From an uncultured Anaerolineales bacterium (GTDB lineage Bacteria > Chloroflexota > Anaerolineae > Anaerolineales > UBA11858), in the NCBI GenBank assembly GCA_964448865.1, contig CAYUXO010000002.1, forward strand, positions 11,602 through 75,601: DNA of 64,000 nucleotides. The letters are read 5' to 3'. The position numbers and the translations under genes were made by a program. The notes under the pieces are model-generated. The model was not told the origin of the DNA. It did no database searches and worked only from the letters and a program-made list of their open reading frames with translations. Below, in pieces: positions 16,022 to 59,911 of the stretch (its first letter is position 1; each line of letters starts with the position of its first letter).

Positions 16022-17198
16022 TGTTTTGATTGGAGAAAAGATGACAAAACCAACCCAGTTATCACATAATGCTGCTGCTGAAAGGCAGTATCATGACAAA
16101 CGAATGGTGGTTGCCGATTTTAATCAGGCTCCCTTCACAATTGCCTGGGAGGTCACTCGCGCTTGTGCTTTTGCCTGTGTGCACTGCCGGGCAGATGCAA
16201 TTCCTCAGCGCGATCCAGATGAATTGACCACTAAGGAAGCCTTTAATTTAATTGACCAGCTGACAGAATTTGGGAGTCCAATTCTGATCTTTACAGGTGG
16301 CGATCCTATGATGCGCCCGGACTTGTTCAAAATTATCGCTTATGCTACCGAAAAAGGCCTGCGATGTTCCTTGACCCCGACAGCAACGGCCTTGCCGACC
16401 TTGGAGAAATTGAAGCAAGCCAAAGAAGCCGGTATTCGACGGATTGCGCTAAGTCTGGATGCGCCAGGACCAGGAGTACATGATGAGTTTCGAAAAGTAG
16501 AGGGTTCCTGGCAAAGGACGATCGATATTTTGCTCCGGGCACAGGAAGCCGGACTGAGCGTTCAAGTCAATACGACAGTAACCAAGTTTAATGTCGATTT
16601 ACTGCCCGAGATGATTCCTTTCATTAAGAAAGTTGGGGCAGTGCAGTGGTCGGTGTTTTTTATGGTCCCTACTGGGCGGGCTCAGGCGAAGTACATGATC
16701 TCGGCAGAAAGACACGAGGAAGTATTTAATTGGCTTTATGATCTATCAAAAATCGCTCCCTTTGATATTAAAGGAACTGCCGCGCCAATGTACCGGCGGG
16801 TAGCGATCGAGCGTAAAAAAGCCGAGGTTGGCAACGGCGAAATAGTCACTTTTCAAGGAGCGGGATTCCAGTACGCCGATGGGTTGAACCGCCCTCGCAA
16901 GGGGGTTAATGATGGCAACGGATTCTTGTTTATCTCCCATATTGGAGAGATCCAGCCTTCTGGCTTTCTTCCTTTGACTGCCGGATACGTTCGAGAGGAT
17001 GATGTGGTTAAAGTTTACCGCGAACATCCAATTTTTACCGACTTACGTGATCCAAGGAAGCTCAAAGGAAAATGTGGTATTTGTGAGTACATAGATGTCT
17101 GCGGTGGTCAACGGGGACGCGCATACGGATTGACTGGAGATTATTTAGAAACAGATCCGGCATGTGTTTATACGCCGGCTGCAGAACGGAGGTTGTGA
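16014..17198 (+). CDS. Radical SAM/SPASM protein of the NirJ/AhbC/AhbD family
   Basis: [20 protein letters not shown] (Cx3Cx2C) and a C-terminal SPASM Cys cluster ([12 protein letters not shown]...DPAC). Embedded between hemB and hemE. An alternative start at 16041 has a GGAG RBS. Confidence 0.75.
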
Positions 17199-17208
17199 GC
17201 AAAGAATT

Positions 17209-18246
17209 ATGAATGAGATAAAATCTCGGTTCTTGAGAGCCTGTCACCGTTTACCCGTCGATGCCACGCCTGTCTGGTTTATGCGCCAGGCCGGACGTTA
17301 CATGGCAGAGTACCGTGCTATCCGAGAAAAACTTACTTTATTGGAAATGGTCGAACGTCCGGAGATCGCGGCTGAAGTCACCCTCCAGCCTGTGGAAGCA
17401 CATGGGGTAGATGCTGCAATCCTTTTTGCTGATATCCTGCTGCCTGTAGTGCCTATGGGCTTCAACCTTAAGTTTGTAAAGGGTGAAGGCCCTAGAATTG
17501 ATAATCCGTTTCGTACTGAGGAAGACCTGAAGCGAATCCGGAAGATCAATGCAGTAACTGATCTAGGTCATGTAATGGAAGCAATTAAAATATTGCGGGA
17601 AGAACTCTCTGATGAAGTTGCTTTGATCGGGTTTTCTGGCGCGCCATTTACGGTAGCTTCTTATATTATCGAAGGTGGTCCGTCGAAAGAATACCACCAT
17701 GTTAAATCATTGATGTATGCTTACCCAGAAGTTTGGGGAGAGTTCATGAGCCTGGTGGCAGATACCTTGACAGATTACCTGGTCTCCCAGATTGATGCTG
17801 GCGCACAGGCTGTGCAAGTATTTGATTCCTGGGTGGGGGTGCTTTGCCCGAGTGATTATCAGCAATACGTACTACCCTATTCCCGAAAGATGATCCAGGC
17901 AGCAAAAGCGAAAGATGTGCCTGTGATCCATTTTGGTACCAATACAACCACCTTGCTGCCGCTGATGAAAAAAGCTGGGGGTGATGTAATTGGCCTGGAT
18001 TGGCGTATTCCCTTAGATGAGGGCTGGAAGCTGTTGGGCGAGGATGTGGCCGTACAAGGCAACCTTGACCCGATCGCGCTCTTTTCTCCCCGGGAAGTGT
18101 TGGGGGGGAAAGTAAAGGATGTGTTAGATCGAGCAGATGGAAGACCAGGGCACATTTTCAACCTTGGGCACGGCATCTCTCAATTTACAAATCCAGATCA
18201 GGTTAAAACCGTCGTGGAGATGGTTCATGATTGGACGGCAAAATGA
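17209..18246 (+). CDS. hemE: Uroporphyrinogen decarboxylase
   Basis: PVWFMRQAGRYMAEYR signature. ATG 17209 was chosen over the upstream extension that overlaps the radical-SAM gene. Confidence 0.9.
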   Translation: MNEIKSRFLRACHRLPVDATPVWFMRQAGRYMAEYRAIREKLTLLEMVERPEIAAEVTLQPVEAHGVDAAILFADILLPVVPMGFNLKFVKGEGPRIDNPFRTEEDLKRIRKINAVTDLGHVMEAIKILREELSDEVALIGFSGAPFTVASYIIEGGPSKEYHHVKSLMYAYPEVWGEFMSLVADTLTDYLVSQIDAGAQAVQVFDSWVGVLCPSDYQQYVLPYSRKMIQAAKAKDVPVIHFGTNTTTLLPLMKKAGGDVIGLDWRIPLDEGWKLLGEDVAVQGNLDPIALFSPREVLGGKVKDVLDRADGRPGHIFNLGHGISQFTNPDQVKTVVEMVHDWTAK

Positions 18247-19670
18247 ATATTGTCATTATTGGCGGTGGTATTGCCGGATTAGCAGCAGCCCATTATCTTG
18301 AGATAAAAGCACAAGAAAGCAGGAAACCGACCAATATAACCTTACTGGAAGCAGCAGATTATTGGGGCGGAAAGATTAAAACTGTTATTGAAGATGGTTT
18401 TGTGATTGAAGGCGGGCCAGACGCTTACCTGGTCACCAAACCATGGATGAGGGCTTTGTGTAGAGAATTGGGATTAGATAAAGAATTGCACGGCACCAGC
18501 CAGGAGCACACTGAAACCTTTATTTTGCATAGAGGCGAACTCACCTCAATCCCGACCGGATTGACCATGACGATCCCTACAGAATTTGGCCCTCTGTTGA
18601 AAACTAAGCTGCTCAGCCTTCCCCAGAAAGTCAGGATGAGTTTCGATTTCATCATCCCGCCAAACCGGGCTAACGAGGATGAAAGTCTGGCGGGGTTCAT
18701 ATCACGGCGGTTGGGAAGAGCTACTTATGATAATTTAATTGGGCCTTTACTTAGTGGGATCTATGCTGGAGATGGTGACCGTTTGAGTTTGCAATCTACG
18801 TTTCCAATTTTACGAGAAATGGAATTGGAATATGGGGGAATAATAAAAGGCGCTCTCGCACTGAAACTAAAACGCGCTTTGCTGGCAAAGAAACGAGCCA
18901 ATGGCAGTAAAGCTCCAAAATCCCACAGCATTTTTGAAACCCATAAACGCGGTTTGTCCATTATCGTGGACGCTTTGGTTGATTCTCTCAACAGTCGTGG
19001 AGTTCAACTAATATTAAATACGCCTGTTGTGCGGATCGAAAAATCCGGCGCCGGCTTTACTGTTTACAAACACGATGGCAGTTCAATGCCAGCAGATGCC
19101 GTTGTGATGGCTGCCCCTGCATATGCAGCTGCTGAATTGTTGTCTGATATTTCACCTGACTTAGCGAAAGAATTGGAGCAGGTTGAATACGTCACCACTG
19201 CAACGGTCACGCTAGCATATCATAAGAAAGACTTGCCAGCTTTAGAAGGGTACGGCTATATCATCCCGCAAAATGAAGACAGCAAGGCGTTGGCCTGTAC
19301 TTGGACATCGACCAAGTGGGAGGGGCGAGCACCTGATGATTACGCGCTATTGAGAGTGTTTGTTGGCCGGATTCAAGATGCAGAGCGATTGCCTGAAGAT
19401 GAAGCTGTTCTGATCAAGATGGCAAAAGATGAAGTTCTTCAAACAATGGGAATTGAAATTGAACCTGAACGAAGTTGGGTTTTTCGTTGGGAGAAGGCAA
19501 TGCCGCAGTATAACCTGGGCCACCCAGAACGATTGGAACGGATCGAAGCGATTATGAAAGAATATGCTAATTTAGTCCTGGCTGGTAACGGCTATCATGG
19601 TATTGGTCTGCCAGATTGCATCAACTCTGGAATCATGGCAGCAGAAAAGCTGATTCAAGTGAGAAAGTGA
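18243..19670 (+). CDS. hemY: FAD-dependent coproporphyrinogen/protoporphyrinogen oxidase (HemY/CgoX type)
   Basis: IVIIGGGIAGLAAAHYL dinucleotide fold and HemY length. ATGA overlap with the hemE stop. Confidence 0.85.
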   Translation: MNIVIIGGGIAGLAAAHYLEIKAQESRKPTNITLLEAADYWGGKIKTVIEDGFVIEGGPDAYLVTKPWMRALCRELGLDKELHGTSQEHTETFILHRGELTSIPTGLTMTIPTEFGPLLKTKLLSLPQKVRMSFDFIIPPNRANEDESLAGFISRRLGRATYDNLIGPLLSGIYAGDGDRLSLQSTFPILREMELEYGGIIKGALALKLKRALLAKKRANGSKAPKSHSIFETHKRGLSIIVDALVDSLNSRGVQLILNTPVVRIEKSGAGFTVYKHDGSSMPADAVVMAAPAYAAAELLSDISPDLAKELEQVEYVTTATVTLAYHKKDLPALEGYGYIIPQNEDSKALACTWTSTKWEGRAPDDYALLRVFVGRIQDAERLPEDEAVLIKMAKDEVLQTMGIEIEPERSWVFRWEKAMPQYNLGHPERLERIEAIMKEYANLVLAGNGYHGIGLPDCINSGIMAAEKLIQVRK

Positions 19671-19678
19671 GGGGATAA

Positions 19679-20971
19679 ATGGGAATCGATAAATCAATTC
19701 AGTTATTTGATAGAGCAAAAGAAATTCTACCTGGCGGCGTAAGTTCTCCGGTTCGGGCTTTCCGGGCGGTGGGTGGTCAGCCTCTGTTCATTGATCACGG
19801 CCAAGGTCCTTACTTATTTGATGTTGATGGTAACCGCTATATTGATTATGTGCTGTCATGGGGCCCATTGATCTTGGGCCATTCTCATCCAGAAATCGTC
19901 TCTGCTCTGCATGACACGCTTGAGAGTGGAACCAGCTTTGGTGCACCAAGTCCGTTGGAAATTAGACTGGCAGAATTAATTCAAACTTTTATGCCCCAAT
20001 TGGAAATGCTCCGCTTTGTAAACTCCGGCACTGAAGCTACAATGAGCGCCCTCCGGTTGGCAAGAGCCTTTACAAAGCGAGACAAGATTATTAAATTTGA
20101 AGGCTGCTACCACGGTCATGCAGATTTACTGCTGGTACAGGCTGGGTCTGGAGTGGTTACATTAGGATTACCGGATTCTCCCGGTGTACCTCCAGCAACA
20201 GTTCAAGATACCTTGGTTGCGCGATACAATGATTTAGATTCGGTTGAATCATTGTTCGAACAGTTCCCGGAAGAAATTGCTACTGTGATCGTTGAACCCG
20301 TTGCTGGGAATATGGGTGTTGTTCCGCCAGTACCGGGATTCCTTGAAGGCCTGCAGGCTATTACCAAAAAGTATAGCAGCTTATTGATCTTTGATGAGGT
20401 GATGACCGGATTCCGAGTACATCCCGGAGGCGCTCAAACGCTTTATGATATTCAACCCGACCTGACGACTTTGGGGAAAGTAATAGGAGGTGGCTTGCCG
20501 GTTGGCGCTTATGGGGGGCGGAAAGATATTATGGAACATATAGCACCAGCCGGATCTGTTTATCAGGCTGGAACTTTGTCAGGGAATCCCCTGGCAATGA
20601 CAGCTGGTATCACAACACTTGAAGTTTTGCAGCAGCCTGGCATTTGGGAGAAATTAGAAGAAGCTGTATCAAAACTTACCAAGGGGGTAGCGCAGATTGC
20701 AGTGGAAACAGGAATTACGATTAGGCAAACTGCAGTAGGAACGATGTTCTCTACCTTCTTTACAGAAAGCGAGATCAAAGATTGGCCGTCAGTCAAGACG
20801 TGTGACACTGAGCGATTCGGAAGGTTTTTTAGAAAAATGCTGGAAGAAGGAATTTACCTGGCACCATCGCAGTTTGAAGCTGGCTTTATGTCAACAGTGC
20901 ACGATCAAAAAACCATTGACAAGACACTTGAAGCTGTGGACAGAGTCTTCAGGACTTTAGTCAGCGAATAG
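19679..20971 (+). CDS. hemL: Glutamate-1-semialdehyde 2,1-aminomutase
   Basis: [10 protein letters not shown] and PLP-Lys region TLGKVIGGG. Confidence 0.9.
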
Positions 20972-21326
20972 TATACAGGAAAGCAATAATTATTTTTTGA
21001 CAAAAGTTTCTAACTTGGATTTCATATTTGTTATTATCGAGTCCATGCCAGCGGGGAAATTATCATGAAAGTTTCTTTTTAATGGGCATATCTGAAATGC
21101 AGTGCTTTTTATGCCGCATTACATTCCAATGTTGGTTGATTTGTATTATAAACCTTGACGCAGTTTGCCTTTGGCAATATCTTTTTGGCTTAAGTTGCTC
21201 TGTTCATGATGGAGATCTTTTTGTTGATTGCGGTTTAATTCTTGACAATAAAATTAGACATCACAGCTTTGAGGGAAAACAAGAAGCAACTGATGTTCCG
21301 GCGTAACCTTTTATGCAATGGAAGAT

Positions 21327-21359
21327 GAAAAAAAAGGTGAAAGGAAAAACCTTTCATCC
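21327..21359 (-). terminator. Intrinsic terminator of hemH
   Basis: On the minus strand: ggatgaaagg-ttttt-cctttcacc followed by a T8 run. The hairpin begins at the hemH stop codon. Confidence 0.6.
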
Positions 21360-22337
21360 TTTTCTTTTCGCTTTTGAAAGTGAATCCTTGATAATTTCAG
21401 CCAAAGCCCGGATCTGAGAATCACTGTCATTGAGCGCTGGAATGTAGTGAAATTCGCCTCCGCCCGCCTGGGAAAAGATATCCTTGCCATGAATAGCGAT
21501 TTCTTCCAGCGTTTCCAAGCAGTCCACAGCAAAACCCGGGCATAACACGTGGAGATTTTTGCACCCTTCTTCACCCAGGGTCTTTATTGTATTGTCTGTA
21601 TAGGGATCCAGCCAGGCTTCAGGTCCAAAGCGGGATTGAAATGCGACATCGGTATCACTGGCCTGCAGCCCTGCTTTTTGTGATACCAGGCTGGATGTAT
21701 CATAGCATTTTGTCTGATATGGTTCGCCTTTTCTCGTTATATAACGTTTTGGGACACCGTGGAACGAAAAGAGGGTTTTTTCTGGTTTTCCAGTTAACGC
21801 CCAGGCATCTTGTAAGGAACCTGCCAGGGCAGAAATGTAAGCGGGGTGATTGTGATAATCCTTAATGATCGTGACTGACTTGAAACCAGATCCGACGGCG
21901 AGCCCTGCCTTTGTTTTTAGAATGGCAGTCAAATTAGTGGTGGAGCTGTATTGGGGAAAGAGAGGAAAAACCACTAGGTGGGCAACACCTTTTTCTCTGA
22001 GTTCCTTTAAACCCTGCCCAATTGAAGGGTTACCGTAGCTCATTCCAATTGATACTTCCCAGCCGGGATTTTTTTGAACCAGTTTGGTGGCCATTGACTG
22101 CATGAGGCACAGCAGCGGTGAGCCGGATGCAGTCCAGATCTTTTTATACAGAAGGGCAGATTTTTGGGGGCGCTTTCGGAGGATAATCTTCTCAAGGATG
22201 GGCATCCAAAGCCAGCGTGGGTAATCGACCACCTGGGGGTCACTGAGAAATTCCGCCAGAAAATCACGGACAGCTTTTTCCGTCGGCGCATCCGGTGTTC
22301 CGATATTGATCAGTAAGATTCCTAGTTTATGATTCAT
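21354..22337 (-). CDS. hemH: Ferrochelatase (HemH/CpfC)
   Basis: LLINIGTPDAPT N-terminus, FSFHGVP and ferrochelatase length. Convergent with the haem operon. Confidence 0.9.
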   Translation of the reverse strand: MNHKLGILLINIGTPDAPTEKAVRDFLAEFLSDPQVVDYPRWLWMPILEKIILRKRPQKSALLYKKIWTASGSPLLCLMQSMATKLVQKNPGWEVSIGMSYGNPSIGQGLKELREKGVAHLVVFPLFPQYSSTTNLTAILKTKAGLAVGSGFKSVTIIKDYHNHPAYISALAGSLQDAWALTGKPEKTLFSFHGVPKRYITRKGEPYQTKCYDTSSLVSQKAGLQASDTDVAFQSRFGPEAWLDPYTDNTIKTLGEEGCKNLHVLCPGFAVDCLETLEEIAIHGKDIFSQAGGGEFHYIPALNDSDSQIRALAEIIKDSLSKAKRKG

Positions 22338-22805: not shown

Positions 22806-23813
22806 TTAATCTGTAAATTGAAAGGTCCAGATAAAATCAACCAGGGACCAGGTTTGCTCTTCGGTAAATACGGGTCCGAAATTGGGCATGCCTGTCCCCA
22901 TCCCTCCCCGGATTATTTTTCCTTGCAGCACCGCAGAACTGGATGCTAACATTTGTTCGGGTTGGGTAAAATCAGCTGGCGGTGAAAGATCTGCCAATAA
23001 AGTGTTTGTTTCTGGATCTCCTGCAATATACTGCCCCGCAAATATTCCCCCTCCGTCACCATCCGGCCCATGGCAAGCAGCGCAATTTTGACTGTACAGC
23101 TGACCTCCGGCATTAATGTTCTCGACAGTCGTGCCCGATCTCCAGAGGGCCGCGATCAGGTCCCAAAGATCCTGATCGCTCAATTCTTCAGCAAATGACT
23201 CTTCCCGGAGCGATAACCAAACACTTGCGGGACTGTTTGACCTGAGATAATCGATGGTTTGGTAAGGTTCCAACTTTGATCCATCAATCTTGCCCATGAT
23301 AACCCGTCCGTCATTGGCAGAAGGGATTTTCAACGGTATTTTTTCTGTGCTGCGCTCTTGATCGATATCAACTCCCATCACGACATAGAGAGGTGACTTG
23401 GTTTGCTCTTGGGACTGGGCTGGTCCTTCCACGATGATGGTCCCGCGCATCCGCCAATGATTGGGACTGCACCAGCGCGTGCAGTAGTAAACATATCTTC
23501 CTGGCTCAGCAAAAGTAATTGTGGTTTGGGAGTACTCTCCAGGATAGATTTCGATTTCAGGATGGTCCAGCTGGCCGACGGCAAAGCCATGGACAACATC
23601 ATCAGAGGTAAACTGCAACGCGAGTGGTTTTCCTGCTTCCGCGTAGATGGTTCCCGGCATCCACCCGCCGTCTTCAGGTACAGCAGCGTGCACTATTAAC
23701 CCGGGCGGCAGAGTATTTTTACCCCACAGGAAAACTCCAAGAGGAAGCCCCAGGACCATCAACCCTATAAGTATCCGGGCAAAGACTTCGTTTTTTATCC
23801 GACGAGCAGCCAT
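22806..23813 (-). CDS. Membrane-anchored CuA-motif cupredoxin fused to a mono-haem cytochrome c
   Basis: DVVHG-x35-CTRWCSPNHWRM gives the H...Cx3Cx3Hx2M set. C-terminal CAACHGPDG plus GTGMPNFG. ATG 23813 was chosen; the longer ORF to 24011 lies inside the upstream gene. Confidence 0.7.
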   Translation of the reverse strand: MAARRIKNEVFARILIGLMVLGLPLGVFLWGKNTLPPGLIVHAAVPEDGGWMPGTIYAEAGKPLALQFTSDDVVHGFAVGQLDHPEIEIYPGEYSQTTITFAEPGRYVYYCTRWCSPNHWRMRGTIIVEGPAQSQEQTKSPLYVVMGVDIDQERSTEKIPLKIPSANDGRVIMGKIDGSKLEPYQTIDYLRSNSPASVWLSLREESFAEELSDQDLWDLIAALWRSGTTVENINAGGQLYSQNCAACHGPDGDGGGIFAGQYIAGDPETNTLLADLSPPADFTQPEQMLASSSAVLQGKIIRGGMGTGMPNFGPVFTEEQTWSLVDFIWTFQFTD

Positions 23814-25153
23814 AATAATCCTATGGTAATTCCGAGGAAAAATATCAGCAGAGGCCAGAGGGCATTGTGCCTGGCATCTTCCCGGTTGATCTTGACAGCT
23901 ATTTGACCTGAAACCAATAATCCGGCAATTAATACAGCGGCTTCCAGCTTGGGAGTTAAGCTGCTCAAATAAGGGGTCCAGCTGTAACCCGCTGTTCCCA
24001 TTAAATTCCACCCCCAGCCCATGGGATCAGACAGGACACCCCAGATGTAGGAGCCATTGCTGAATGCAAATGACAGGCTGAAGGCAGCCCAGGCACCCAG
24101 GCCCAGGGGTACCAGAGCCGCTGAAAAAGATTTAAAGGCAATCTTTGTGGTTTTCCGTGAAGCAGATCTGGGCTGTGTTAAACGGACTGCGCCGTAAAAA
24201 AGTCCGGGAAGCACTATAAAATTGATCAATAAAAATCCCGCAGCAAAGAGCCACCAGCTCTCGCTGCCAATGGAAAATGCCGCGTTTTTTAATTCTCCCC
24301 AGGGTCCGAGCATGATAGCAGAATAAACTATAGCGCTGCCCAGCATCAGGATGGCTTTAAATGCCTCATCAAGTTTAATAGCGCCTGGTTGGATGAGATC
24401 CTGTCCCCAATCCCGGATATTGATTGTGATGTTGTCATGAGGGCAGGTCCGCAAACATTCAAAACAGGCCCCACAATTGATATTTAGTTTCATCGCCGGG
24501 GGATAGACGTTCCACGGGCAGCCGTAGCCATTTTCATCCCCGGTATAGCAGGTTTTTACCTGGTGGTTTTTGCAAACATCACCATCCAGTATGCGGAGTT
24601 CGACAGGTGAAACCAGGGAATACAGGCCTATAAAGCCTCCCACAGGACAGAGATAGCGGCAGAAAGCCCGCCGTTCGAATACTAAGCTGGTAAGGACGGC
24701 AGTGATAATCATGCCCGCTAATAACCAGGCGGTGACCGCCGGCTTGGTCAGGATCACAGCACTGAACAGGGCCATCAAAGTAAAGGAGCCATTCTGAAGC
24801 CAGATATTGCGGAATTTTTTTGGCCAGCGCCAACCTTTCCCAAAGCCATTTTTTCCAGGTTGGGGTCCCAGAATTGTTCCTTGCTGCAGCCACTCACCGG
24901 GAAGAGGCAGGGGACAAATACTGCACCAGCTCCGGCCCAGAAATGGCACAAGCACCAGGATCAATGCTGCCCACCAGGCAATCCAGATTAAAACGATGCT
25001 CAAATTTCGATTGCCAACCGGGGTTCCCCCTAAACCGGAGATGATTACAATGATAAAGACACCCAGGGCAATTCCCCTGACTACAAGCTGTGGCCAGCGG
25101 GAGGTAACTCCCCACTTAAGGATAGGATTCCGCAAGACATTCCAGCTGTTCAT
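23795..25153 (-). CDS. Polytopic 4Fe-4S membrane protein, NapH/MauN/NosR/CcoG family
   Basis: WCSICPLP (CxxCP), FCRYLCPVGG (Cx3CP) and CGACFECLRTCP (CxxCxxCxxxCP), with about 9 hydrophobic helices. Confidence 0.7.
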   Translation of the reverse strand: MNSWNVLRNPILKWGVTSRWPQLVVRGIALGVFIIVIISGLGGTPVGNRNLSIVLIWIAWWAALILVLVPFLGRSWCSICPLPLPGEWLQQGTILGPQPGKNGFGKGWRWPKKFRNIWLQNGSFTLMALFSAVILTKPAVTAWLLAGMIITAVLTSLVFERRAFCRYLCPVGGFIGLYSLVSPVELRILDGDVCKNHQVKTCYTGDENGYGCPWNVYPPAMKLNINCGACFECLRTCPHDNITINIRDWGQDLIQPGAIKLDEAFKAILMLGSAIVYSAIMLGPWGELKNAAFSIGSESWWLFAAGFLLINFIVLPGLFYGAVRLTQPRSASRKTTKIAFKSFSAALVPLGLGAWAAFSLSFAFSNGSYIWGVLSDPMGWGWNLMGTAGYSWTPYLSSLTPKLEAAVLIAGLLVSGQIAVKINREDARHNALWPLLIFFLGITIGLLWLLVG

Positions 25154-25599
25154 GATTTACTCCTCATGAAAAATGCCAGAACGACCAGGCTGGATATACC
25201 TGCGCTGCGCAAGAATATGAGATTGCTGCCAACCTGTATTTTTCCGATCATAAACGGGTGCATGGATCCGCAGCTGACAGAACAACGAAACCGGAAGGTG
25301 CCTTCCTGGTTGGCTGTAAAAGTCAGGGAATCGGTTTTTCCGGGGTCAGCATACATTTCCAGATTGTAACCATCCAGATATATACCATGGGCAACATCAA
25401 CAGTTGTCAGATTGAGGGTGATCTTATCACCGGGCTGGACCCTGATCGTTCCCGGATTGAATTGGAACTGGGATGCCTCAATATCAATAACTCTATCCCC
25501 GGAAATTCCCTGAAATCTCGGCAGTGGAAAGAAGGTGATTATGAGTGTGCCGAGCAAGATCACCAGATAAAATCCAGGATTTTTAATGTTCATAATCAT
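25150..25599 (-). CDS. Small membrane-anchored CuA-motif cupredoxin
   Basis: DVAHG-x34-CSVSCGSMHPFM is exactly the H-x34-C-x3-C-x3-H-x2-M spacing of COX2 CuA. TM helices at both ends. 4-nt overlap with the downstream gene. Confidence 0.7.
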   Translation of the reverse strand: MIMNIKNPGFYLVILLGTLIITFFPLPRFQGISGDRVIDIEASQFQFNPGTIRVQPGDKITLNLTTVDVAHGIYLDGYNLEMYADPGKTDSLTFTANQEGTFRFRCSVSCGSMHPFMIGKIQVGSNLIFLRSAGISSLVVLAFFMRSKS

Positions 25600-25674
25600 A
25601 TATATTTACCGGGAGCAGACAATCCGAAAGTTTGCTGGAAAGTGTTCTGAAAATGATCCGAAATCTGAGGGAAC

Positions 25675-26109
25675 TTATGGCATATTTGAAGGACCGAAGG
25701 CGCTGTAAATTGAATCGATTTCAATCCGGATTTCTGCGAGCGACATTCCCTGATCCAGCATATCCATTGTGTCCTGAGTGATATCCACACATATTGAACA
25801 TCCCAGGGCATGGCCGTCGAAGACCAGATCATCAGGGGAAGTGTCATCCTTGACGTAACAGGCATAATTGGATGTGTGGCCCATCGAACCGCAGCCGCAA
25901 TAACAGGGTATTTCCTTTAATATTTGGGGATTTTCAACGGCAAATTGATAGGCATGTTGTACTGAGAGCGGTGCTGATCGTACTTCAACGGGTAATTCTT
26001 CGAGGGCAGCCAGTTGATAGGATTGCTCTGTGTTTGAAGTGCTGCACCCTGCAGCAAGCAAGCCCGCCAGAACTATAACAATGACGGTCATTATTGTTTT
26101 ATTTTTCAT
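25675..26109 (-). CDS. PCYCGC-motif lipoprotein (PF13798-like)
   Basis: Lipobox LAAGC, literal PCYCGCGSMGHTSNYAC plus GHALGCSIC. Confidence 0.7.
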   Translation of the reverse strand: MKNKTIMTVIVIVLAGLLAAGCSTSNTEQSYQLAALEELPVEVRSAPLSVQHAYQFAVENPQILKEIPCYCGCGSMGHTSNYACYVKDDTSPDDLVFDGHALGCSICVDITQDTMDMLDQGMSLAEIRIEIDSIYSAFGPSNMP

Positions 26110-35503: not shown

Positions 35504-35707
35504 CTATTGTCGGCGGTGGGGTAAACGTTTCTTATTTTTCACTCTTCTACCCAGCTCGGGCAAGGCATAATTTTTTGGCATGCTTTCAAACTCGGCTTGA
35601 CATCGGGCACAACACAGGGAATAAGCTACACCTTCATAATTTACAATAGAATAAGGCTTACCACGATTCATTCGTTTTCCGCAAACAGGGTCTTTTAACA
35701 TGATCAT
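35504..35707 (-). CDS. YHS/TRASH-domain small protein
   Basis: DPVCGKRM...YSLCCARCQAEFESMPKNY. Confidence 0.65.
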   Translation of the reverse strand: MIMLKDPVCGKRMNRGKPYSIVNYEGVAYSLCCARCQAEFESMPKNYALPELGRRVKNKKRLPHRRQ

Positions 35708-36880: not shown

Positions 36881-37384
36881 TTACGGGATCCAGTTGGATA
36901 ACACGGTCACAGTTTTGTCCGGTTGGTCCGGATCATTACTCTTGATATGAACCTGGAAATCATGCGGACCGTCCATGCCTGCATGCATCGTGAACGTGCT
37001 GGATTTCAGGGTTACACTCTGACCTGGTTTTAGTACCATCGAACCGATGGTTAAGGAGGGTGGTCAACAACCTTCTTTTACTTCAATATAAGGAGTTTCG
37101 CTGATAATCAATTTCTCGTCCCCAACGTTGGTCAATCTTATCGCAAAGGACTTATTTGTATTAAACTTGACATCACCATAATCGATCAGCTCCTGATCTA
37201 CTTTCAAACTGGGCTGACCGCTAACTTCAATTAAGGACATATCGGCTTTTCTTTCCAAAGCGGATTTGCCAATCAAGATCCCTGCAGAGACCAGAAGTAA
37301 GCTGACAATAATTATCGTGACTAAAGTGTTACGCTGCTGTTTTTTCCGACGTCGTTCTTTGATCCTTTCTCTTGTATTTGCCAT
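36881..37384 (-). CDS. Membrane-anchored DUF1573-like protein interrupted by an in-frame TGA (candidate Sec codon or fresh nonsense mutation)
   Basis: The annotated ORF ends ...YIEVKEGC-TGA (37066-37064). The same frame continues for 60 more sense codons (PPSLTIGSMVLKPGQSVTLKSS...KTVTVLSNWIP) to TAA at 36881, completing the DUF1573-type pattern (N.G...L.I...C.C...PG....V...SN). Confidence 0.55.
37035..37051 (-). other. Hairpin 12 nt downstream of the in-frame UGA (SECIS-like position)
   Basis: Minus strand ACCAUCG-GUU-CGAUGGU (7-bp stem, or 6 bp with a GGUUC loop). The loop starts about 18 nt after the UGA. Confidence 0.3.
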
Positions 37385-37465
37385 ATATCATCTCCGTTTT
37401 TATTAGCCATAAGACACATTTCGTGCCAACACAGTATAGCCTTGTGAAAAGAAGGCGCTCAGAGC

Positions 37466-37519
37466 TATTTAGCGTAATCCTCTATAGGCAATTTCGCCTA
37501 TAGAGGATTACGCTAAATA
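37466..37519. repeat. 54-nt perfect hairpin (24-bp arms, 6-nt loop)
   Basis: tatttagcgtaatcctctataggc-aatttc-gcctatagaggattacgctaaata. Lies between the ABC ATPase gene and the DUF1573-like gene. No flanking U-run. Confidence 0.8.
37484..37501. promoter_or_regulatory. Island palindrome site 4: ATAGGCAA-TT-TCGCCTAT
   Basis: Forms the core of the 54-nt hairpin, 100 nt upstream of the DUF1573-like gene. Confidence 0.45.
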
Positions 37520-37756: not shown

Positions 37757-38470
37757 CTATTGAACAAAATTATTGTAAACCTTCTCATCTGGCTCATTTG
37801 TCAACTGACCGTCTTCAAGCCACAATACTCGATCTGCGATGGCTTTTAGGCGATGGTCATGGGTAACTATGACAATGGCACGGCCCTGATCCCGACCCAA
37901 ACCACAGCAGAGCAACTCCATGACTTCTTGTCCGGTTACGCTATCAAGGTTTCCGGTGGGCTCATCTGCCAGGATAAGAGGAGGATCATTGGCTAATGCT
38001 CGGGCGATGGCCACGCGTTGTTTCTCACCACCTGATAAATCTGCCGGGTTATGATCAAGGCGGTGACCCAATCCCAACATCTCGAGCAATTCAACCGCTC
38101 GTTTATTGGCGGTTTTTCCACGAACTCCGGCCATATTCAGCACCAATTCGATATTTTCTCTTGCGCTGAGGGCACTTAAGAGATTGTAGGACTGAAACAC
38201 AAATCCTAATTTTCCCAAACGCAATGAGGCTAACTGGCGCTGGTTCAGGTCATTGATGATCTGGTTGCCAACACGGATCTCGCCTTCGGTTGGCTTGAGA
38301 AGTAAACCTGCCATACTTAACATAGTAGTTTTACCGCTGCCAGACGGTCCCATGATCAAGACTATCTCACCTGCTTTAACTATAAAATCGATGTTTTTTG
38401 CAGCAATTACCGCGGTATGACCACTCCCGTAAATTTTGCTGACATTGTTGAGCTCGAGCACGTTTTCCAT
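37757..38470 (-). CDS. ABC transporter ATP-binding protein (MacB/LolD type)
   Basis: Walker [36 protein letters not shown]. Confidence 0.85.
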
Positions 38471-38501
38471 TTTCTAATTTCCTTTAATTGAGTGATTCAC
38501 C

Positions 38502-39614
38502 CTAGTTTTTAAAAACGACCATCGGGTCCAGACGAGCAACTCTGCCCAGAGGTAATAAGGCTGCTAAGGCCGTAATTCCTATTAAAATAGGGATTTGTTG
38601 AAATATGTCTTCTGACCGGATCAATATTAACATCTCTGGCATCAGCCTGCTGACTAGATTGGCTACGATGTAAGTTAAACCCACGCCGGTGATAAAACCC
38701 AGGCCTGAACTGATGTAAGCCTGTACGAAAACCACCTCCATTAGGTTGGTAAAATTTGCACCTATTGCCTTCAGCATTCCATATTCTCTGGCCCGTTCAA
38801 GGGTAGCTGTATAAATTGTCAGCCCGATTACCAGGAGCCCGACCACATATGAAACCGTGTTCATCGCTTTGATGATATCGGCTCCCATCTGGCGGATCAT
38901 TTCCTGATCGCTGGCTGCGAAATCGGCCTGTGTCATCACATTAATTTCTGGAATGGCATCAAAAAGTCTGTCGGATAGGATGTCAAGGTTCAGGCCTGGT
39001 TCAGGCTGAATGAGGATGTAACTGGCAGCCTGGGGCGAGATTCCCATCATGCCAGCTAGCAGCTCTTTGTTGATAAAACTGATGCTGGTGGCAATACCGA
39101 AAGTGCCTTTGCTGAGTCCAGCAATCTTCAAGTCTGTACCGAGAACATTGACCTTATCGCCCAGACTCAGATCATAACGGGCAGCCAAATCTTGATCGAT
39201 GATGACCTCATCCCATTCCAGATTGGTGGCCCCTTCAGCCATTTCCCAGGGCCCACCAAAGGGAACATCATCCTCAACTGCGAAGATATAACTATAAATT
39301 AACGTGTCACCAACATCCACACCTGCGTTGGCGTATAATAAACCGACGGCTTCCTGCACCCCAGGTACAGCTTTGACTTTTTCCAGCGCATCGGCTGAAA
39401 GAGTAGAAGATGACATATGCATATTGGCTACGCCAGACTGCATCATCCAAAGGGAAGCGGGTTGGTTTTTGATATAAGCTACCGCATGTTCTTCCGAGCC
39501 TGCAAAGACCCCGGACATGACCAATATCAACAAGACAGCAAGGGAAACCCCACTCACACTGATGGCGAGCCGAGTGCGCTCAAATATAAGATTACGCCAA
39601 CCGAGCTTTATCAA
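38502..39614 (-). CDS. ABC transporter permease, FtsX/MacB-type (4 TM with large extracytoplasmic domain)
   Basis: TM1, a ~200-aa loop and a C-terminal FtsX triple-TM pattern (REYGMLKAIGA). Confidence 0.8.
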   Translation of the reverse strand: MIKLGWRNLIFERTRLAISVSGVSLAVLLILVMSGVFAGSEEHAVAYIKNQPASLWMMQSGVANMHMSSSTLSADALEKVKAVPGVQEAVGLLYANAGVDVGDTLIYSYIFAVEDDVPFGGPWEMAEGATNLEWDEVIIDQDLAARYDLSLGDKVNVLGTDLKIAGLSKGTFGIATSISFINKELLAGMMGISPQAASYILIQPEPGLNLDILSDRLFDAIPEINVMTQADFAASDQEMIRQMGADIIKAMNTVSYVVGLLVIGLTIYTATLERAREYGMLKAIGANFTNLMEVVFVQAYISSGLGFITGVGLTYIVANLVSRLMPEMLILIRSEDIFQQIPILIGITALAALLPLGRVARLDPMVVFKN

Positions 39615-39627
39615 TTAACTCTCCTTG

Positions 39628-40746
39628 TCAAGACTTAAAAACCATCACCGGATCAATTTGATTCAATCGCTGGATGGGTAATACTGCAGAAAACATGCTC
39701 ATGAGTAAAGTTAATAACCCTGCTAGCCCCACAGTTTGAGGTTCAAGCAATATATTGAATTGTGGCCAAGTTGCCATAATAAAATTGGCTGCTAGAATGG
39801 CCAGTAAAGTTCCGAAGATATAACCCAAAGCTGCTCTATAAAAAGTATCGATAATTACAATTCTGACCAACCGGATTCCACTTGCTCCAAGGGCTTTGAG
39901 TATTCCGTAATCTCTCGTGTTATCAATGACAGCCGTATACGAGGTTAATCCCGTCACTGCCACGCCAATAACAAAACCGATACCTAACATAACATTGATG
40001 GGAGAATCCATAATATTTGCAAGAATGCGGCGATCAGCTTCTGCGATATCATCTGGTAACATCGCGTTGACACCGGGGATCTCGGCCTCGATGGCAAGGG
40101 AAGCAGCTTCCGGATCAGTACCCTCTGGTAAACGGATCATGTGGTAACTTACGATACCTGAAAGTCCCAGTATATCCTCAGCTGCATCCAGGCTGACAAA
40201 TATATAGGGGCTCATCCAAGATGACGTTTCCTGTGATAATCCGACCAAAGTAAACTGCTGGCCAAGTAAGTTGACTGGATCCCCTATGATCAGTCCAGCT
40301 CGTTGGGCTAACCAAGTATCCAAGACGACCTCATTATTTTCTTTGATCGTCCGACCACTTCCAATTTTCCAGGGGTTGCCAAAGTTTGTGGCTGGATCGT
40401 ATCCAACTAACAACACAGGGGTTTTGGTCTCATTCTGGGTGAAGATTAAGTCAGCCATCAAGATATGGCCAGCTTCGGCAGCATCGGCAACCCCTGCGAT
40501 CCGTTCGTGCAGATCCAATGGCACAGCCGAATTGGATGAGAACATCCCCTGGACGCCGCTCTGAGCGACAATCAAATCCACGCCAATATTATCCACAAAA
40601 GCAGTCAAAGTGGCGTATAAACCCGCCCGGAAACCCATTAACAAAAGAATTAAGGTTAAGGCCGAGGCGACCCCGGCCACACTTACTACTAGTTTGCCTT
40701 TTTCGTAGAACAAATGGCGGCGGGTAAAAGATGCGTTCATAGTCAT
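39628..40746 (-). CDS. ABC transporter permease, FtsX/MacB-type, second distinct paralog
   Basis: Same architecture (RDYGILKALGA) but low identity to the neighbouring permease, suggesting a heterodimer. Confidence 0.8.
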   Translation of the reverse strand: MTMNASFTRRHLFYEKGKLVVSVAGVASALTLILLLMGFRAGLYATLTAFVDNIGVDLIVAQSGVQGMFSSNSAVPLDLHERIAGVADAAEAGHILMADLIFTQNETKTPVLLVGYDPATNFGNPWKIGSGRTIKENNEVVLDTWLAQRAGLIIGDPVNLLGQQFTLVGLSQETSSWMSPYIFVSLDAAEDILGLSGIVSYHMIRLPEGTDPEAASLAIEAEIPGVNAMLPDDIAEADRRILANIMDSPINVMLGIGFVIGVAVTGLTSYTAVIDNTRDYGILKALGASGIRLVRIVIIDTFYRAALGYIFGTLLAILAANFIMATWPQFNILLEPQTVGLAGLLTLLMSMFSAVLPIQRLNQIDPVMVFKS

Positions 40747-41086: not shown

Positions 41087-41470
41087 ATGTCAATGGATCC
41101 TCAATTCTCAACGCTAGATATGGACTGTGAAACCACTATTGCACACTTAACCCGGCGGTTATCATATCATGGGCTGTGGACTATTCGTGATTTCGACCTG
41201 CAATCAGCTTGCGCTTCGTTTACGGATCTGAGCTGTCCACACAACGGTGATTCCACATGTGGCTGCCAAATGGTTGTCCTGTTAGTTTTTAGCAATGAAG
41301 CTTCTCCAGCTTCAATTGTGCTTCATACTCATCACGGTAAAACCGATGTTGACCTGATCGATTCGCCCAACAACTACCCTGGTCAACAATTAAAAAGAAC
41401 AATACAGCACGCGTTTGAAAAGATCGAGGATTCGCTTCTGTTGTTGAATTGGGAGACAAATGCAATCTGA
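41087..41470 (+). CDS. Small Cys/His-rich protein, paralog P2
   Basis: DFDLQ-x8-LSCPHNGDSTCGCQMVVLLVF-x11-HTHHGKT. Its stop overlaps the csoR-like start by 11 nt. Confidence 0.65.
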   Translation: MSMDPQFSTLDMDCETTIAHLTRRLSYHGLWTIRDFDLQSACASFTDLSCPHNGDSTCGCQMVVLLVFSNEASPASIVLHTHHGKTDVDLIDSPNNYPGQQLKRTIQHAFEKIEDSLLLLNWETNAI

Positions 41471-41741
41471 TATTTATTCATCCGTTATTGCCCGGCTGAG
41501 TTCAGCTGAAGGACACCTTCGAGCTGTCAACGGCATGGTGGAATCCCAGATTCCGAGCCGAATTGTTCTCCATCAATTGCGCGCTGTACAGGGAGCGTTA
41601 AAGGCAGTATCAAAGATGATTCATGGAGAATATATTGAGGAATGTTTGAGGATTTTAGTGACGAGCGATTCTCCAGAAGAAAGCCAGCAAGCTTTGGATT
41701 CTCTCCTGGAGTTGTACAACTGGTCAGTTAGTCAAAAATAA
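41460..41741 (+). CDS. CsoR/RcnR/FrmR-family (DUF156) protein lacking canonical Cu(I) ligands
   Basis: RLSSAEGHLRAVNGMVE...VLHQLRAVQGALKAVSKMI..EECL matches the family helices. By my alignment to the CsoR x-C-H-C fingerprint the ligand positions read S, Y and C. Confidence 0.65.
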   Translation: MQSDIYSSVIARLSSAEGHLRAVNGMVESQIPSRIVLHQLRAVQGALKAVSKMIHGEYIEECLRILVTSDSPEESQQALDSLLELYNWSVSQK

Positions 41742-41762: not shown

Positions 41763-44309
41763 ATGTCAACAAAAATCAAAGAAACAAACCTGCCAATTTC
41801 CGGGATGACCTGTGCCTCTTGTGTTGCACATGTCGAAAAGTCTTTAAATGAAATTCCCGGAGTAAAAAAAGCAACAGTAAACCTGGCCACCGAACGTGCG
41901 ACTATCAAATACGATGGCAGCGATGTTGACCCGGGAGTTCTTGTTCAAGCTGTGCGCGACTCTGGGTATGACGTTCCCTCAGAAACAATTAACCTACCTA
42001 TTGGAGGTATGACCTGTGCCTCCTGTGTCGCTCACGTAGAGGGTGGATTAGCGGACACCCAGGGAGTGGTCAGCGCTTCTGTCAACCTGGCTACAGAACG
42101 GGCAACCGTCAAGTATATCCCAAGCATCACCAGCCGGGATGATCTAATAAAAGCCGTGGCTGATACTGGATATAAAGTACTAGAAATGGAATCTATTGAA
42201 GGTGAAGACGAAGTCGATCAGGAAGAACGCAAAATGGCAGAGTCCCTTTTTCGTGTGCGCGTGGCCTGGGCATTCACGCTTCCCATCATCTTGTGGATGT
42301 TTGCTGAAATGTTCTTTGGTATTGTCTGGCCCAATGAGACGATATTTAATTTGGGCATGATCATACTGGCTTTGCCGGTCCTCTTCTGGGTGGGCTGGCC
42401 GACTTACCGCGGCGCCTGGGCAGCCGTCACTCACAAACACGCTAATATGGATACCCTGATCGCATTAGGAACAGGAGTCTCGCTTCTGACTGGCCCGGCC
42501 TGGTTCTTCACTCCGGTTGCAAATTATGCGGGTGTTGCCGCCATGATCATGGCCTTCCACTTGACTGGCCGGTATATCGAAGAGAGCGCTAAAGGACGGG
42601 CTTCTCAAGCTATCCGGAAACTGCTTGAGCTCGGTGCCAAGACAGCCCGGATTGAGCGTGATGGTCGTGAAGTAGAAATGCCCATCGATGAAGTTCAGGT
42701 TGGTGACTTGATGGTAGTGCGGCCAGGCGAGAAAATTCCTACAGACGGTTTGGTACGCAGTGGAGAAAGTGCTGTAGACGAATCGATGGCTACCGGCGAA
42801 TCGATGCCGGTCAATAAACACCCGGGTGATGAAGTCATCGGCGCCACTGTCAACCAGGAGGGTTTGCTTAAAGTAGAAGCCACCAAGATCGGTAAGGACA
42901 CTTTCCTTTCCCAGGTGATTAAACTGGTAGACGAGTGCCAGGGATCCAAGGTGCCCATTCAGGAATTCGCTGATAAAGTTACCGGGATCTTTGTGCCGGT
43001 GGTGATTGGTATCACTGTGTTGACTGTGCTAGCCTGGGTTGTGTTACCCAGAGTGATGCAGCCGCTGGTTGAATTGGGAACCTTTCTGCCCTGGGTTGAC
43101 CCGAGTTTGGGGGTTCTCACATTGGCGATCGTTTCAATGGTAGCGGTATTGGTGATTGCCTGCCCCTGCGCCTTAGGTCTGGCAACTCCCACAGCACTGA
43201 TGGTTGGAAGCGGTATGGGCGCTGAAAACGGCATACTGATCCGGTCAGGTGCTGCCATCCAATCTATCAAAGACGTGAAAATTGTGATTTTTGATAAGAC
43301 CGGGACCATTACCAAAGGCAAGCCAGAAGTCACTGATGTGGTAACCAGTGATCAATGGATAGAGAATGGGACTGAGGATGGATTACTCCGATATGCTGCT
43401 TCTGTTGAACGAGGGTCTGAACATCCGTTAGGACGGGCCATGGTCGTATGGGCAGAAAACAAGGGATTGGACCTTGTTGATCCCGAGAAATTTGGAGCTG
43501 TGCGCGGCAAAGGGGTAATCGCCACAGTGAATGACAAGATTGTACTGGTGGGGTCCAGGCGGCTGATGAAAGAGAACGACATAGACCCGTCTGTACTGGA
43601 AGATGACCTCGTGAAGCTTGAGAATGAAGCCAAAACCGCGATGTTGGTGGCTGTGGATGGAAATCTGGCTGGTATCGTGGCAGTAGCCGACACACTGAAA
43701 GAGGACTCTTCCCTGGCAATCAACGCCTTGCACCAGATGGGCATCCAGACAGCGATGATCACCGGCGACAACCAGCGTACGGCGAAGGCTATCGCTCAAG
43801 TGGTCGGTATCGATCATATCCTGGCGGAAGTGCTGCCCGACGGGAAAGTAGACGAGGTGAAGAAGCTGCAGCAGCAATTTGGGATCGTGGCTTTTGTGGG
43901 CGATGGCATCAACGATGCTCCTGCTCTGACACAAGCCAATGTAGGTTTGGCCATCGGTACCGGTACCGACATTGCCATCGAAGCCAGTGATATCACCCTG
44001 GTGCGCGGTGAGCTGACCGGCGTGATCGAAGCCATAAACCTCAGCCGGGAGACTTTCAAGAAGATTAAACAAAACCTGTTCTGGGCTTTCTTCTACAATG
44101 TTGCTATGATCCCCCTGGCGGTGATTGGCTGGATGCACCCCGTGCTGGCCGAGATTGCCATGGCAACCTCATCCATTACTGTAGTCAGCAATGCCAACCG
44201 TCTGCGCAAGATTGACATCCGCCCTGATTACCGTCAGAAATCCACTGAAAATGATGATCAGTATACAGTGGAGCCAACCCTGGCTAACCAGGCTCGACAA
44301 AGAGTGTAG
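41763..44309 (+). CDS. copA: Cu(I)-exporting P1B-type ATPase with two N-terminal HMA domains
   Basis: Two [12 protein letters not shown] motifs, [21 protein letters not shown] and GDGINDAP. Confidence 0.9.
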
Positions 44310-59227: not shown

Positions 59228-59911
59228 ATGACAAATAAAGACACAGAACCTACCATTCGTGTGGTGCTGGCAGATGACCATGCTGTCGTTCGTGCTGGCA
59301 TCCGCCAGTTTTTAGAGAGTGCCGGGGATATCCAGGTTGTAGCTGAAGCAGATGATGGTGAAATGGCAAAAAAACTCATCACGGAACACCTGCCTGATGT
59401 TGCAGTTCTTGATATTCAGATGCCAAAAGCAACAGGGATCGAAGTTACTCAATGGGCCCGCGATAATCAGCTTGAGGTTGGTTTGCTGATCCTGACCGCT
59501 TATGATGATTCTCCTTACGTGATGGCGGTATTACAGGCTGGAGCGAACGGCTATGTATTAAAAACTGCCGCTCCAAGGGAAATTATTCGCGCTGTACGCG
59601 ATGTTTACGCGGGTAATTCTGCCCTGGATGCCAGCATTCTCAACAAGATGATGACCCAGATTTCAAAGGTCAAAGACACACCGCTGGTAGAGGAGTTGAC
59701 TAAACGCGAGATGGAGGTTCTGTCCCTGGTTGGCATGGGGTATATCAACAAAGCCATTGGTGTTCAATTGGGCATCAGCGACCGCACAGTCCAGGGGCAT
59801 TTAGCGCATGTCTTCAGCAAGCTCCAGGCTTCCAGCCGCACCGAAGCGGTGATGCGCGCAGTTTCACTGGGTTGGCTGCCTTCTGATTTGGGACGAATGG
59901 ATTCAGATTAA
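59228..59911 (+). CDS. NarL/LuxR-family response regulator
   Basis: Receiver domain plus a C-terminal LuxR HTH (LTKREMEVLSLVGMGYINKAIGVQLGISDRTVQGH). Confidence 0.9.
   Translation: MTNKDTEPTIRVVLADDHAVVRAGIRQFLESAGDIQVVAEADDGEMAKKLITEHLPDVAVLDIQMPKATGIEVTQWARDNQLEVGLLILTAYDDSPYVMAVLQAGANGYVLKTAAPREIIRAVRDVYAGNSALDASILNKMMTQISKVKDTPLVEELTKREMEVLSLVGMGYINKAIGVQLGISDRTVQGHLAHVFSKLQASSRTEAVMRAVSLGWLPSDLGRMDSD

Follow-up and report, generated by a model that had tools for sequence, protein, structure and literature searches.

Does the UGA codon in the middle of a small Anaerolineales gene end its protein, or is it read through as selenocysteine (Sec)? The question is raised by the minus-strand gene at positions 36881..37384 of a 64,000-nucleotide stretch of DNA from an uncultured Anaerolineales bacterium (contig CAYUXO010000002.1), which was analysed as a whole and is called the window below. 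A preliminary description, made from the letters of the window, had left the gene as either a selenoprotein candidate or a fresh pseudogene. The first of these is now strongly supported by comparison with relatives, while the second is excluded by the purifying selection seen on the tail of the gene. We conclude that the window gene probably encodes a selenoprotein, with UGA codon 107 read as Sec (probability roughly 0.85–0.9).

A reading frame and a domain that cross the TGA

The minus-strand open reading frame (ORF) 37384..37064 comprises 106 codons to ...IEVKEGC and is closed by TGA 37066..37064. Past this codon the frame is open for 60 further codons, PPSLTIGSMVLKPGQSVTLKSSTFTMHAGMDGPHDFQVHIKSNDPDQPDKTVTVLSNWIP, up to TAA 36883..36881; part of this tail reads PPSLTIGSMVLKPGQ...TMHAGMDGPHDF...VLSNWIP. 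Translation bore out the preliminary description on both the end of the ORF and the open 60-codon tail. In the read-through product the context of the Sec dyad is EGC-U-PPSLTIGSMVLK. The start Met is the same as that of the homologues in the alignment. The elements of the gene are as follows.

36881..37384, minus strand: whole putative selenoprotein gene of 167 codons, Sec-UGA (codon 107) among them, then TAA 36883..36881 (from translation, Pfam span and relatives)
37392..37395, minus strand: ribosome-binding site GGAG, 7 nucleotides (nt) 5′ of the ATG 37384..37382 (read from the sequence)
37268..37324, minus strand: predicted single transmembrane anchor, about residues 21–39, LVTIIIVSLLLVSAGILIG, after a strongly basic N-terminus, RERIKERRRKKQQR
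37067..37069, minus strand: Cys106 (TGT), first member of the Cys-Sec dyad, invariant in both the full-length and the Sec-form alignment
37064..37066, minus strand: UGA at codon 107, the putative Sec codon, with CCN CCN (Pro-Pro) behind it in all cases
36962..36988, minus strand: Met/His loop M133-H134-x-G136-M137-x-G139-x-H141, a candidate metal-binding loop

By itself, an open frame behind a TGA says little, since 23 frames of similar size in the window are split by a TGA, and nearly all of these are antisense noise. The significance of this frame comes from a domain that spans the TGA and from conservation across genomes. The read-through product matched PF22544 (HYDIN/VesB-CFA65-like immunoglobulin (Ig) domain) over residues 58–161 with 28.9 bits (cutoff 25.5), and PF07610 (DUF1573) over residues 60–156 with 26.6 bits (cutoff 26.1). 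Either half alone, 5′ or 3′ of the TGA, fell below the Pfam threshold for the two families. Since both matches cross the TGA and the halves fail alone, the stop sits inside a single domain. The DUF1573 pattern proposed earlier for the two parts together was right as far as the domain is concerned, but the Cys pair is an adjacent C-C and not the CxC that had been described. When aligned with the full-length homologues, the window copy was found to retain every family-invariant residue.

Elsewhere in the window TGA behaves as an ordinary stop. It terminates 8 of the 24 Pfam-supported genes and is an internal stop in none of them. Therefore, no genome-wide reassignment of the code is involved.

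Conservation of the TGA among relatives

A protein search returned about 80 distinct homologues with 52–82% identity, together with some 22 full-length proteins (152–189 residues). The approximately 80 homologues had all been called at exactly 106 residues, and all ended in ...EGC. The position of the TGA corresponds in the full-length proteins to the second Cys of EGC-C-PP (Cys in 21 of 22), and the first Cys of the motif is invariant. Control loci were obtained by scanning a genome collection with a peptide pattern that spanned GC[CW]PP and returned Cys forms only; all 37 carried TGY at the Sec codon. Hence, as had been suspected, the TGA takes the place of a family Cys, namely the second of the C-C pair, and would give an adjacent Cys-Sec pair.

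The only full-length exception, P0057, has a Trp at the Sec position (C-W-P-P), and TGG is one substitution away from TGA. It may reflect an escape from Sec to Trp in a lineage that has lost Sec decoding, or be an error.

Metagenome DNA was fetched with an alignment that was confined to the 106 N-terminal residues. The identity of the stop codon was unbiased in this search because the patterns lay upstream (5′) of it. The codon after ...GC was TGA in 80 of 80 loci (72 of 72 unique sequences), and TAA or TAG in none, with identities of 39–82% across the aligned N-terminal part. In every locus that was long enough, 58–60 codons 3′ of the TGA were open and conserved, and the final stops were a mixture of TAA, TAG and TGA. 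The UGA was followed by C in every unique Sec-form sequence. The comparison of orthologues, suggested at the outset as a check, has come out in favour of Sec, with TGA in all of the closest relatives and Cys in the full-length proteins and genome loci at the frequencies given above.

The ratio of nonsynonymous to synonymous divergence (pN/pS) was 0.20 in the tail and 0.28 upstream, with pS about 0.77, near saturation, in both. By this measure, purifying selection on the tail is no weaker than on the upstream half. The identical 106-residue call was recovered on 15 contigs from several sequencing runs, and this disposes of the sequencing or strain-specific error that had been allowed for. An exhaustive profile search gave 12,342 matches, mostly giant multi-repeat Ig proteins, and is no gauge of the size of the subfamily.

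A hairpin downstream of the UGA

The hairpin that had been noticed behind the UGA was confirmed, and is a candidate for a selenocysteine insertion sequence (SECIS).

37035..37051, minus strand: putative SECIS core hairpin ACCAUCG-GUU-CGAUGGU, 7-bp stem, apical loop GUU at 37044..37042

It begins 12 nt 3′ of the UGA, and the distance from the UGA to the loop is 19 nt. Its folding energy of −7.6 kcal/mol was equalled by 1 of 200 shuffles. The published model of the bacterial SECIS (bSECIS) has a loop of 3–9 nt, a stem of 4–16 bp, a G in the first two loop positions, a UGA-to-loop distance of 16–37 nt and a minimum free energy of −7.5 kcal/mol or lower (PMC13188914). The hairpin passes on every count (GUU loop, 7 bp, 19 nt, −7.6 kcal/mol), on energy only narrowly. 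The first two bases of the loop, G and U, are invariant.

Across the 72 unique Sec-form sequences, the codons of the hairpin were frozen: ACC in 60/60, ATC in 69/69, GGT in 70/70 and TCG in 69/69. Every other four-fold codon nearby was represented by 3–4 synonyms. Accordingly, pS was 0.20 in the hairpin codons against 0.77 elsewhere. The hairpin was absent from the 37 Cys-form genes, in which both the peptide and the synonymous sites of the region vary freely; Cys forms that encode T-I-G-S-M do so with ACG/ACC, ATC/ATT, GGT/GGC/GGG/GGA and TCG/TCA/TCT/AGC.

In the test of base pairing, 92.6% of the cells were paired, as against 17–68% when the partners were slid. The pair 19-35 changed from A-U to G-C in five sequences, with joint amino-acid changes of Thr to Ala and Val to Ala; the pair 22-32 had one G-C and one G.U; and in locus L014 a C-G became U-A at a pair that is otherwise invariant. 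Two extensions of the stem were rejected. A lower stem UGACC/GGUCA is present in the fold of the window but is lost in relatives that have GAA (Glu) for CAG (Gln), and an eighth pair, between columns 18 and 36, is not formed in 15 of 34 sequences. The search for a bacterial SECIS, another of the checks proposed earlier, has yielded a hairpin that fits the published model and is frozen and covarying in Sec forms only.

On the family tree, the hairpin occurs in every U form and in no C form save those of loci L001 and L005, and the deep clades are Cys-only. Nested within the Sec clade, L001 (site 10156) and L005 (site 10279) carry TGT together with an intact ACCATCGGTTCGATGGT hairpin. They appear, from their sequences and position in the tree, to be recent Sec-to-Cys conversions with a 'fossil' SECIS. 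Two other loci contain tandem paralogues, a Cys form with a Sec form directly behind it: L014 at 6419 (TGC) and 7015 (TGA), and L083 at 3631 (TGC) and 4108 (TGA). In both, the hairpin is found in the Sec copy only. Such pairs are reminiscent of the Sec/Cys isoenzymes of methanogens; they may provide a back-up dependent on the supply of selenium.

Decoding of the UGA and alternatives to it

From these results a conventional course of decoding may be proposed. UGA codon 107 would be decoded as Sec during translation. The 17-nt hairpin would act as a bacterial SECIS and recruit SelB with Sec-tRNA(Sec) as the ribosome reaches the UGA, and translation would then run on for 60 codons and complete a single DUF1573/PapD-like Ig domain. 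We infer the dependence on SelB and the actual incorporation of selenium.

Several points weigh against this proposal, which is drawn from sequence. As already stated in the preliminary description, none of selA, selB, selD and tRNA-Sec was found in the window (tRNA search, Rfam and inspection of ORFs); it contained no tRNA and no Rfam match, and its ORFs of SelA, SelB or SelD size are other enzymes. A search of about 1.08 Mb of related loci for signature motifs of SelD, SelA and SelB gave no match, and ARAGORN detected no tRNA whatever in 38 related loci. A second selenoprotein gene was not found, either among the TGA-split frames of the window or by tblastn with 13 neighbour proteins, in which in-frame stops in place of Cys were sought; both gave noise only. 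The hairpin is minimal and stands at the energy cutoff (−7.6 vs −7.5 kcal/mol), and most of its pairs never vary, so that the covariation rests on few positions.

Genes of the sel group are usually unlinked to their client genes, and their absence from the window and the related loci is therefore uninformative rather than negative. Selenoproteins have been reported in Chloroflexi (PMC1794560), and Sec-containing formate dehydrogenases in single-cell genomes of the Anaerolineae lineage (PMC5736913).

Three other explanations of the TGA were weighed. Were the gene a fresh pseudogene, or the TGA an error of sequencing or assembly, a nonsense mutation would have truncated a DUF1573 gene whose tail is now decaying. 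The public annotation, which gives only a 106-residue product, and the failure to see Sec machinery in the window agree with this, but the chance that it is so is practically negligible: the same codon is TGA and never TAA or TAG in 80 of 80 relatives, selection on the tail is as strong as upstream with all family-invariant residues kept, and the call, identical on 15 contigs from several runs, is backed by 72 unique sequences that are not the copies of one contaminant. It is very unlikely, too, that the UGA is read through without Sec, with the hairpin and a weak UGA-C context letting a near-cognate or suppressor tRNA insert Trp, Cys or Arg. UGA-C is a leaky context in bacteria, the UGA of this family always stands before C, and Trp is found at the site in one homologue (P0057). 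Against this, essentially all non-UGA homologues have Cys at the position, which is the classic Sec/Cys signature; the hairpin has the features of the SelB type, a loop that opens with G and the right spacing; switching between UGA and Cys is tightly tied to gain and loss of the hairpin; and Sec enzymes are reported in the Anaerolineae lineage (PMC5736913).

The last explanation assumes two products, a functional 106-residue protein and a 52-residue ORF re-initiated at Met115 (ATG 37039). Gene callers do annotate a 52-residue ORF right behind the stop. However, the Pfam domain and the predicted β-sandwich require both halves, the eight codons from the UGA to Met115 (PPSLTIGS) are conserved as protein, and the Cys forms are continuous single proteins. 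As read from the sequence, moreover, the tail by itself carries neither a signal nor an anchor by which to reach the outside. We consider this arrangement extremely unlikely, and read the UGA as a probable Sec codon in what follows.

Predicted fold, dyad and Met/His loop

The structural model consulted was the AlphaFold model of a Cys-form homologue, P0006, and not of the window protein. Its mean pLDDT (predicted local distance difference test) is 89.9 and exceeds 95 across the domain; a helix at residues 15–34 is followed by a β-sandwich. Foldseek matched it to HYDIN, OCRL-ASH, VesB/VesC and PapD/ASH-type Ig domains, and to 2qsv, a P. gingivalis protein of unknown function (root-mean-square deviation 3.2 Å, 23% identity). 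A sequence search of the PDB with the family profile returned HYDIN-type repeats only, and no residue-level alignment to the canonical C-G-C DUF1573.

In the model, the C-U(C)-P-P dyad lies in the loop after strand 5, and the F-x-M-H-x-G-M-x-G-x-H patch in the loop after strand 7. A Met/His patch had been pointed out in the downstream half of the gene; its residues are at least 90% conserved in the full-length and Sec-form alignments. The two loops are expected to lie at the same end of the sandwich because the strands alternate in direction. By the positive-inside rule, a basic N-terminus stays inside. Since that of the family protein is strongly basic, the membrane-anchored Ig domain should face the outside of the cytoplasm.

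Comparison with catalogued selenoproteins

One DUF1573 selenoprotein, OS_HP2 (PF07610), has been catalogued. It has the motif UGC and is known from deltaproteobacterial symbionts of Olavius algarvensis (PMC1976440, PMC9312934, PMC13188914). Like it, the present protein belongs to the DUF1573 Ig-like superfamily and has a single putative Sec in a Cys-rich loop before the PG...SN half, and both were predicted from a conserved TGA with a bSECIS. The two are set apart by motif and by lineage: G-C-U-P-P with C-C homologues is found here, and U-G-C with C-G-C homologues there. Unlike OS_HP2, the present form comes from Anaerolineales (Chloroflexota), has an extra conserved Met/His loop and stands in a cupredoxin-operon context. 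In the 2026 catalogue of 119 families and subfamilies, different Sec positions make separate subfamilies (PMC13188914). None of its 119 entries is a C-U form of DUF1573 or an Ig-like C-U family (PMC13188914), and NCBIfam has no model for the C-U-P-P DUF1573 form. The C-U-P-P form of DUF1573 from Anaerolineales is thus an uncatalogued selenoprotein subfamily, its recoding mechanism being the standard one.

Adjacent C-U dyads occur in the metal-handling selenoproteins SaoL, SaoC, HgcA, MbdU and the CopZ-like 2Fe-2S form 2, and in this group Sec has been proposed as a metal ligand (PMC13188914). The present family has in common with the group the C-U dyad, a proposed soft-metal Sec ligand and linkage to metal transporters, among them ATP-binding cassette (ABC) systems and P-type ATPases. 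Their folds and families are unrelated to it, however, and they are concerned with Hg, As or organometals in Firmicutes and Deltaproteobacteria, whereas we are dealing with an Ig-like membrane-anchored ectodomain in a copper context. YHS, P-type ATPase and CYCXC proteins, all of them families found beside the present gene, also have Sec forms in other organisms (PMC13188914). The hairpin resembles the fdhF-type SECIS of E. coli in being a coding-region stem-loop just 3′ of the UGA, with a G opening a small loop and a spacing within 16–37 nt. It differs in being much shorter, with a 7-bp stem and a 3-nt loop, and in having neither a bulged U nor a conserved lower stem.

In the NCBI and JGI annotation, the gene product stands as a 106-residue hypothetical protein, as 'DUF1573' or as 'cell division septal protein FtsQ'. 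The FtsQ label of JGI appears to be a wrong assignment prompted by the basic N-terminus and the transmembrane anchor. Hundreds of genes of the family in public genomes and metagenomes are recorded as 106-residue fragments, and reading the UGA as Sec would restore the real protein. Besides a new subfamily for the catalogue of the prokaryotic selenoproteome, the family offers a very compact natural SECIS of 17 nt, for which variants by the dozen, matched controls in Cys form and 'fossil' hairpins are available. Such a natural set would help to establish what SelB minimally requires for recognition beyond Proteobacteria and Firmicutes.

Neighbourhood of the gene

Neighbouring ORFs of 64 loci (30 Sec, 34 Cys) were clustered, and gene-order maps were drawn for 63 related loci. 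The usual same-strand operon consists, in this order, of a PCYCGC/CYCXC gene, a small CuA-type cupredoxin, a NapH-like Fer4_5 membrane protein, a cupredoxin-cytochrome c fusion and the family gene; the last follows the small cupredoxin instead in many Cys-form loci. A cupredoxin gene was the immediate upstream neighbour on the same strand in 17 of 30 Sec and 14 of 34 Cys loci. Cupredoxin-cytochrome c genes were found near 46 of the 64 loci and PCYCGC genes near 32. Other recurrent neighbours were CopA, YHS, multicopper oxidase, redoxin, DsbD_TM, DUF2085 and a dCache/HisKA_3-GerE two-component system. All arrangements found relate to copper. A conserved five-gene operon (PCYCGC, cupredoxin, NapH-like, cupredoxin-cytochrome c and family gene) is thereby flagged. 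A literature search found no functional study on PCYCGC, or on DUF1573 and copper. The corresponding features of the window are as follows.

37757..40746, minus strand: MacB-type ABC exporter, an ATPase and two MacB_PCD/FtsX permeases (Pfam)
37466-37489 and 37496-37519: perfect inverted repeat with arms of 24 nt, between the ABC operon and the family gene, unique in the window
41460-41738, plus strand: CsoR-type metal repressor (Pfam, NCBIfam)
41763-44309, plus strand: CopA-type Cu-exporting P1B ATPase with two HMA domains (Pfam, NCBIfam)
35504..35707, minus strand: YHS-domain protein (a metal-associated domain), downstream of the family gene (Pfam PF04945)
25675-26109, minus strand: PCYCGC/CYCXC protein (Pfam, NCBIfam)
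25150-25599, minus strand: CuA-type cupredoxin (Pfam, NCBIfam)
23795-25153, minus strand: NapH-like Fer4_5 membrane protein (Pfam, NCBIfam)
22806-24011, minus strand: cupredoxin-cytochrome c (Pfam, NCBIfam)

In the window, the four-gene operon (22806-26109) lacks the family gene, which lies 11 kb away, behind the MacB-type exporter and in the vicinity of the divergent CsoR-CopA pair and the YHS gene. Between the ORFs called at 22806-24011 and 23795-25153 there is an overlap of about 217 nt, and the true start of the cupredoxin-cytochrome c is therefore probably further downstream than called. The MacB-like ABC operon and the palindromic site, both part of the preliminary description, were found again by Pfam and by the perfect 24-nt arms, respectively. 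The order of ABC genes followed by the family gene is shared by the closest relatives, L039, L040 and L044. In L118, L057 and L049 the CsoR-CopA genes are directly divergent from the Sec gene, and a YHS gene lies near 7 of 24 long Sec-form loci.

The core of the palindrome, TATAGGC-N6-GCCTATA, is kept in sequence and position in L039, L040 and L044, with arms of 11–24 nt. It is absent from L118 and L057, in which the gene and CsoR-CopA diverge. The repeat may be an operator, a terminator of the ABC operon without a U-tract, or both. CsoR operators are G/C-rich, and the palindrome, with the core given above, was not adopted as one.

Possible function

What the protein does was approached from its loops and its neighbours. 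We take Cys106, Sec107 and the Met/His loop together as a putative soft-metal site, with Cu(I) as its most likely metal. The protein would then serve as a copper partner or chaperone for the co-transcribed CuA-type cupredoxins and, in the genome of the window, the adjacent MacB exporter or the CsoR-CopA copper-resistance genes. We put forward the role of an extracytoplasmic copper-binding partner or chaperone tentatively, at somewhat less than even odds. A possible likeness is to PCuAC (DUF461) and Sco/TlpA, membrane-tethered small extracytoplasmic β-sandwiches with Met/His and thiol ligands, and the setting, beside CuA-type cupredoxins and thioredoxin-like reductases, is also similar. Membership of PCuAC (DUF461) or Sco was not indicated by any Pfam or NCBIfam match at E ≤ 1. 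Unlike those proteins, the present one has a vicinal Cys-Sec pair in its ligand set, and its function is judged from context.

Some observations speak against a copper role. The Foldseek matches included no solved copper chaperone, and the read-through product matched no copper-chaperone family of Pfam. The proximity of the C-U and Met/His loops is deduced from strand alternation only. Linkage to copper genes is frequent and not universal, CopA being present in the flanks of 8 of 24 long Sec loci. A literature search found no functional study on PCYCGC, or on DUF1573 and copper.

Alternatively, Gly-Cys-Sec could form a vicinal selenenylsulfide, and the protein could be an extracytoplasmic thiol/selenol oxidoreductase that keeps the cysteines of the CuA site or of PCYCGC reduced, alongside redoxin and DsbD_TM and in the manner of Sco and TlpA. 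The G-C-U motif recalls the GCUG motif of mammalian thioredoxin reductase, which forms a vicinal selenenylsulfide. Genes for redoxin and DsbD_TM recur nearby, and most selenoproteins are redox proteins (PMC13188914). The fold, however, is Ig-like and not thioredoxin-like, and the presence of CsoR-CopA, YHS and multicopper-oxidase genes nearby suggests that the metal itself is concerned. The Met/His loop, moreover, is strictly conserved, and loops of this kind are typical of Cu(I) sites rather than of redox sites. We regard a purely redox role as rather unlikely. By analogy with Sco proteins, redox and metal-binding roles are not mutually exclusive and could coexist.

A further step in the copper direction would make Sec a copper ligand in an uncatalogued membrane-tethered metallochaperone that matures or protects the CuA-type cupredoxins of Chloroflexota, with the tandem Cys/Sec paralogues as a switch for selenium supply. 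This combined proposal is speculative, and we would call it doubtful as it stands. If true, it would extend the biology of Sec from redox catalysis and the handling of Hg and As to copper trafficking in the envelope. The gene also connects selenium use with copper handling in Anaerolineales, which are abundant but poorly cultured.

Other genes near the copper genes

Upstream of CsoR, a 127-residue ORF (41087-41470, plus strand) with CPH...C-G-C motifs overlaps the CsoR start by 11 nt and has no Pfam or NCBIfam match. Its homologues adjoin ABC, CsoR or CopA genes in six Sec-form loci (e.g., L039, L044).

A response-regulator-sized ORF at 59228-59911 (plus strand) is followed in the window by a dCache/HisKA_3 histidine kinase at 59950-61689. 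A GerE-type regulator and a kinase of the dCache/HisKA_3 architecture lie near the family gene in 23–27 of the 64 related loci, and this two-component system may regulate the copper island.

A second P-type ATPase (62163-63983, minus strand) has E1-E2_ATPase and Hydrolase domains; the ORF as called lacks an HMA domain, and the true N-terminus of the protein may fall outside the window. Directly beside the cupredoxin-cytochrome c operon there is a tetrapyrrole/haem cluster (12035-22337), with genes for glutamyl-tRNA reductase, a protoporphyrinogen-oxidase-like amine oxidase, a class-III aminotransferase and ferrochelatase.

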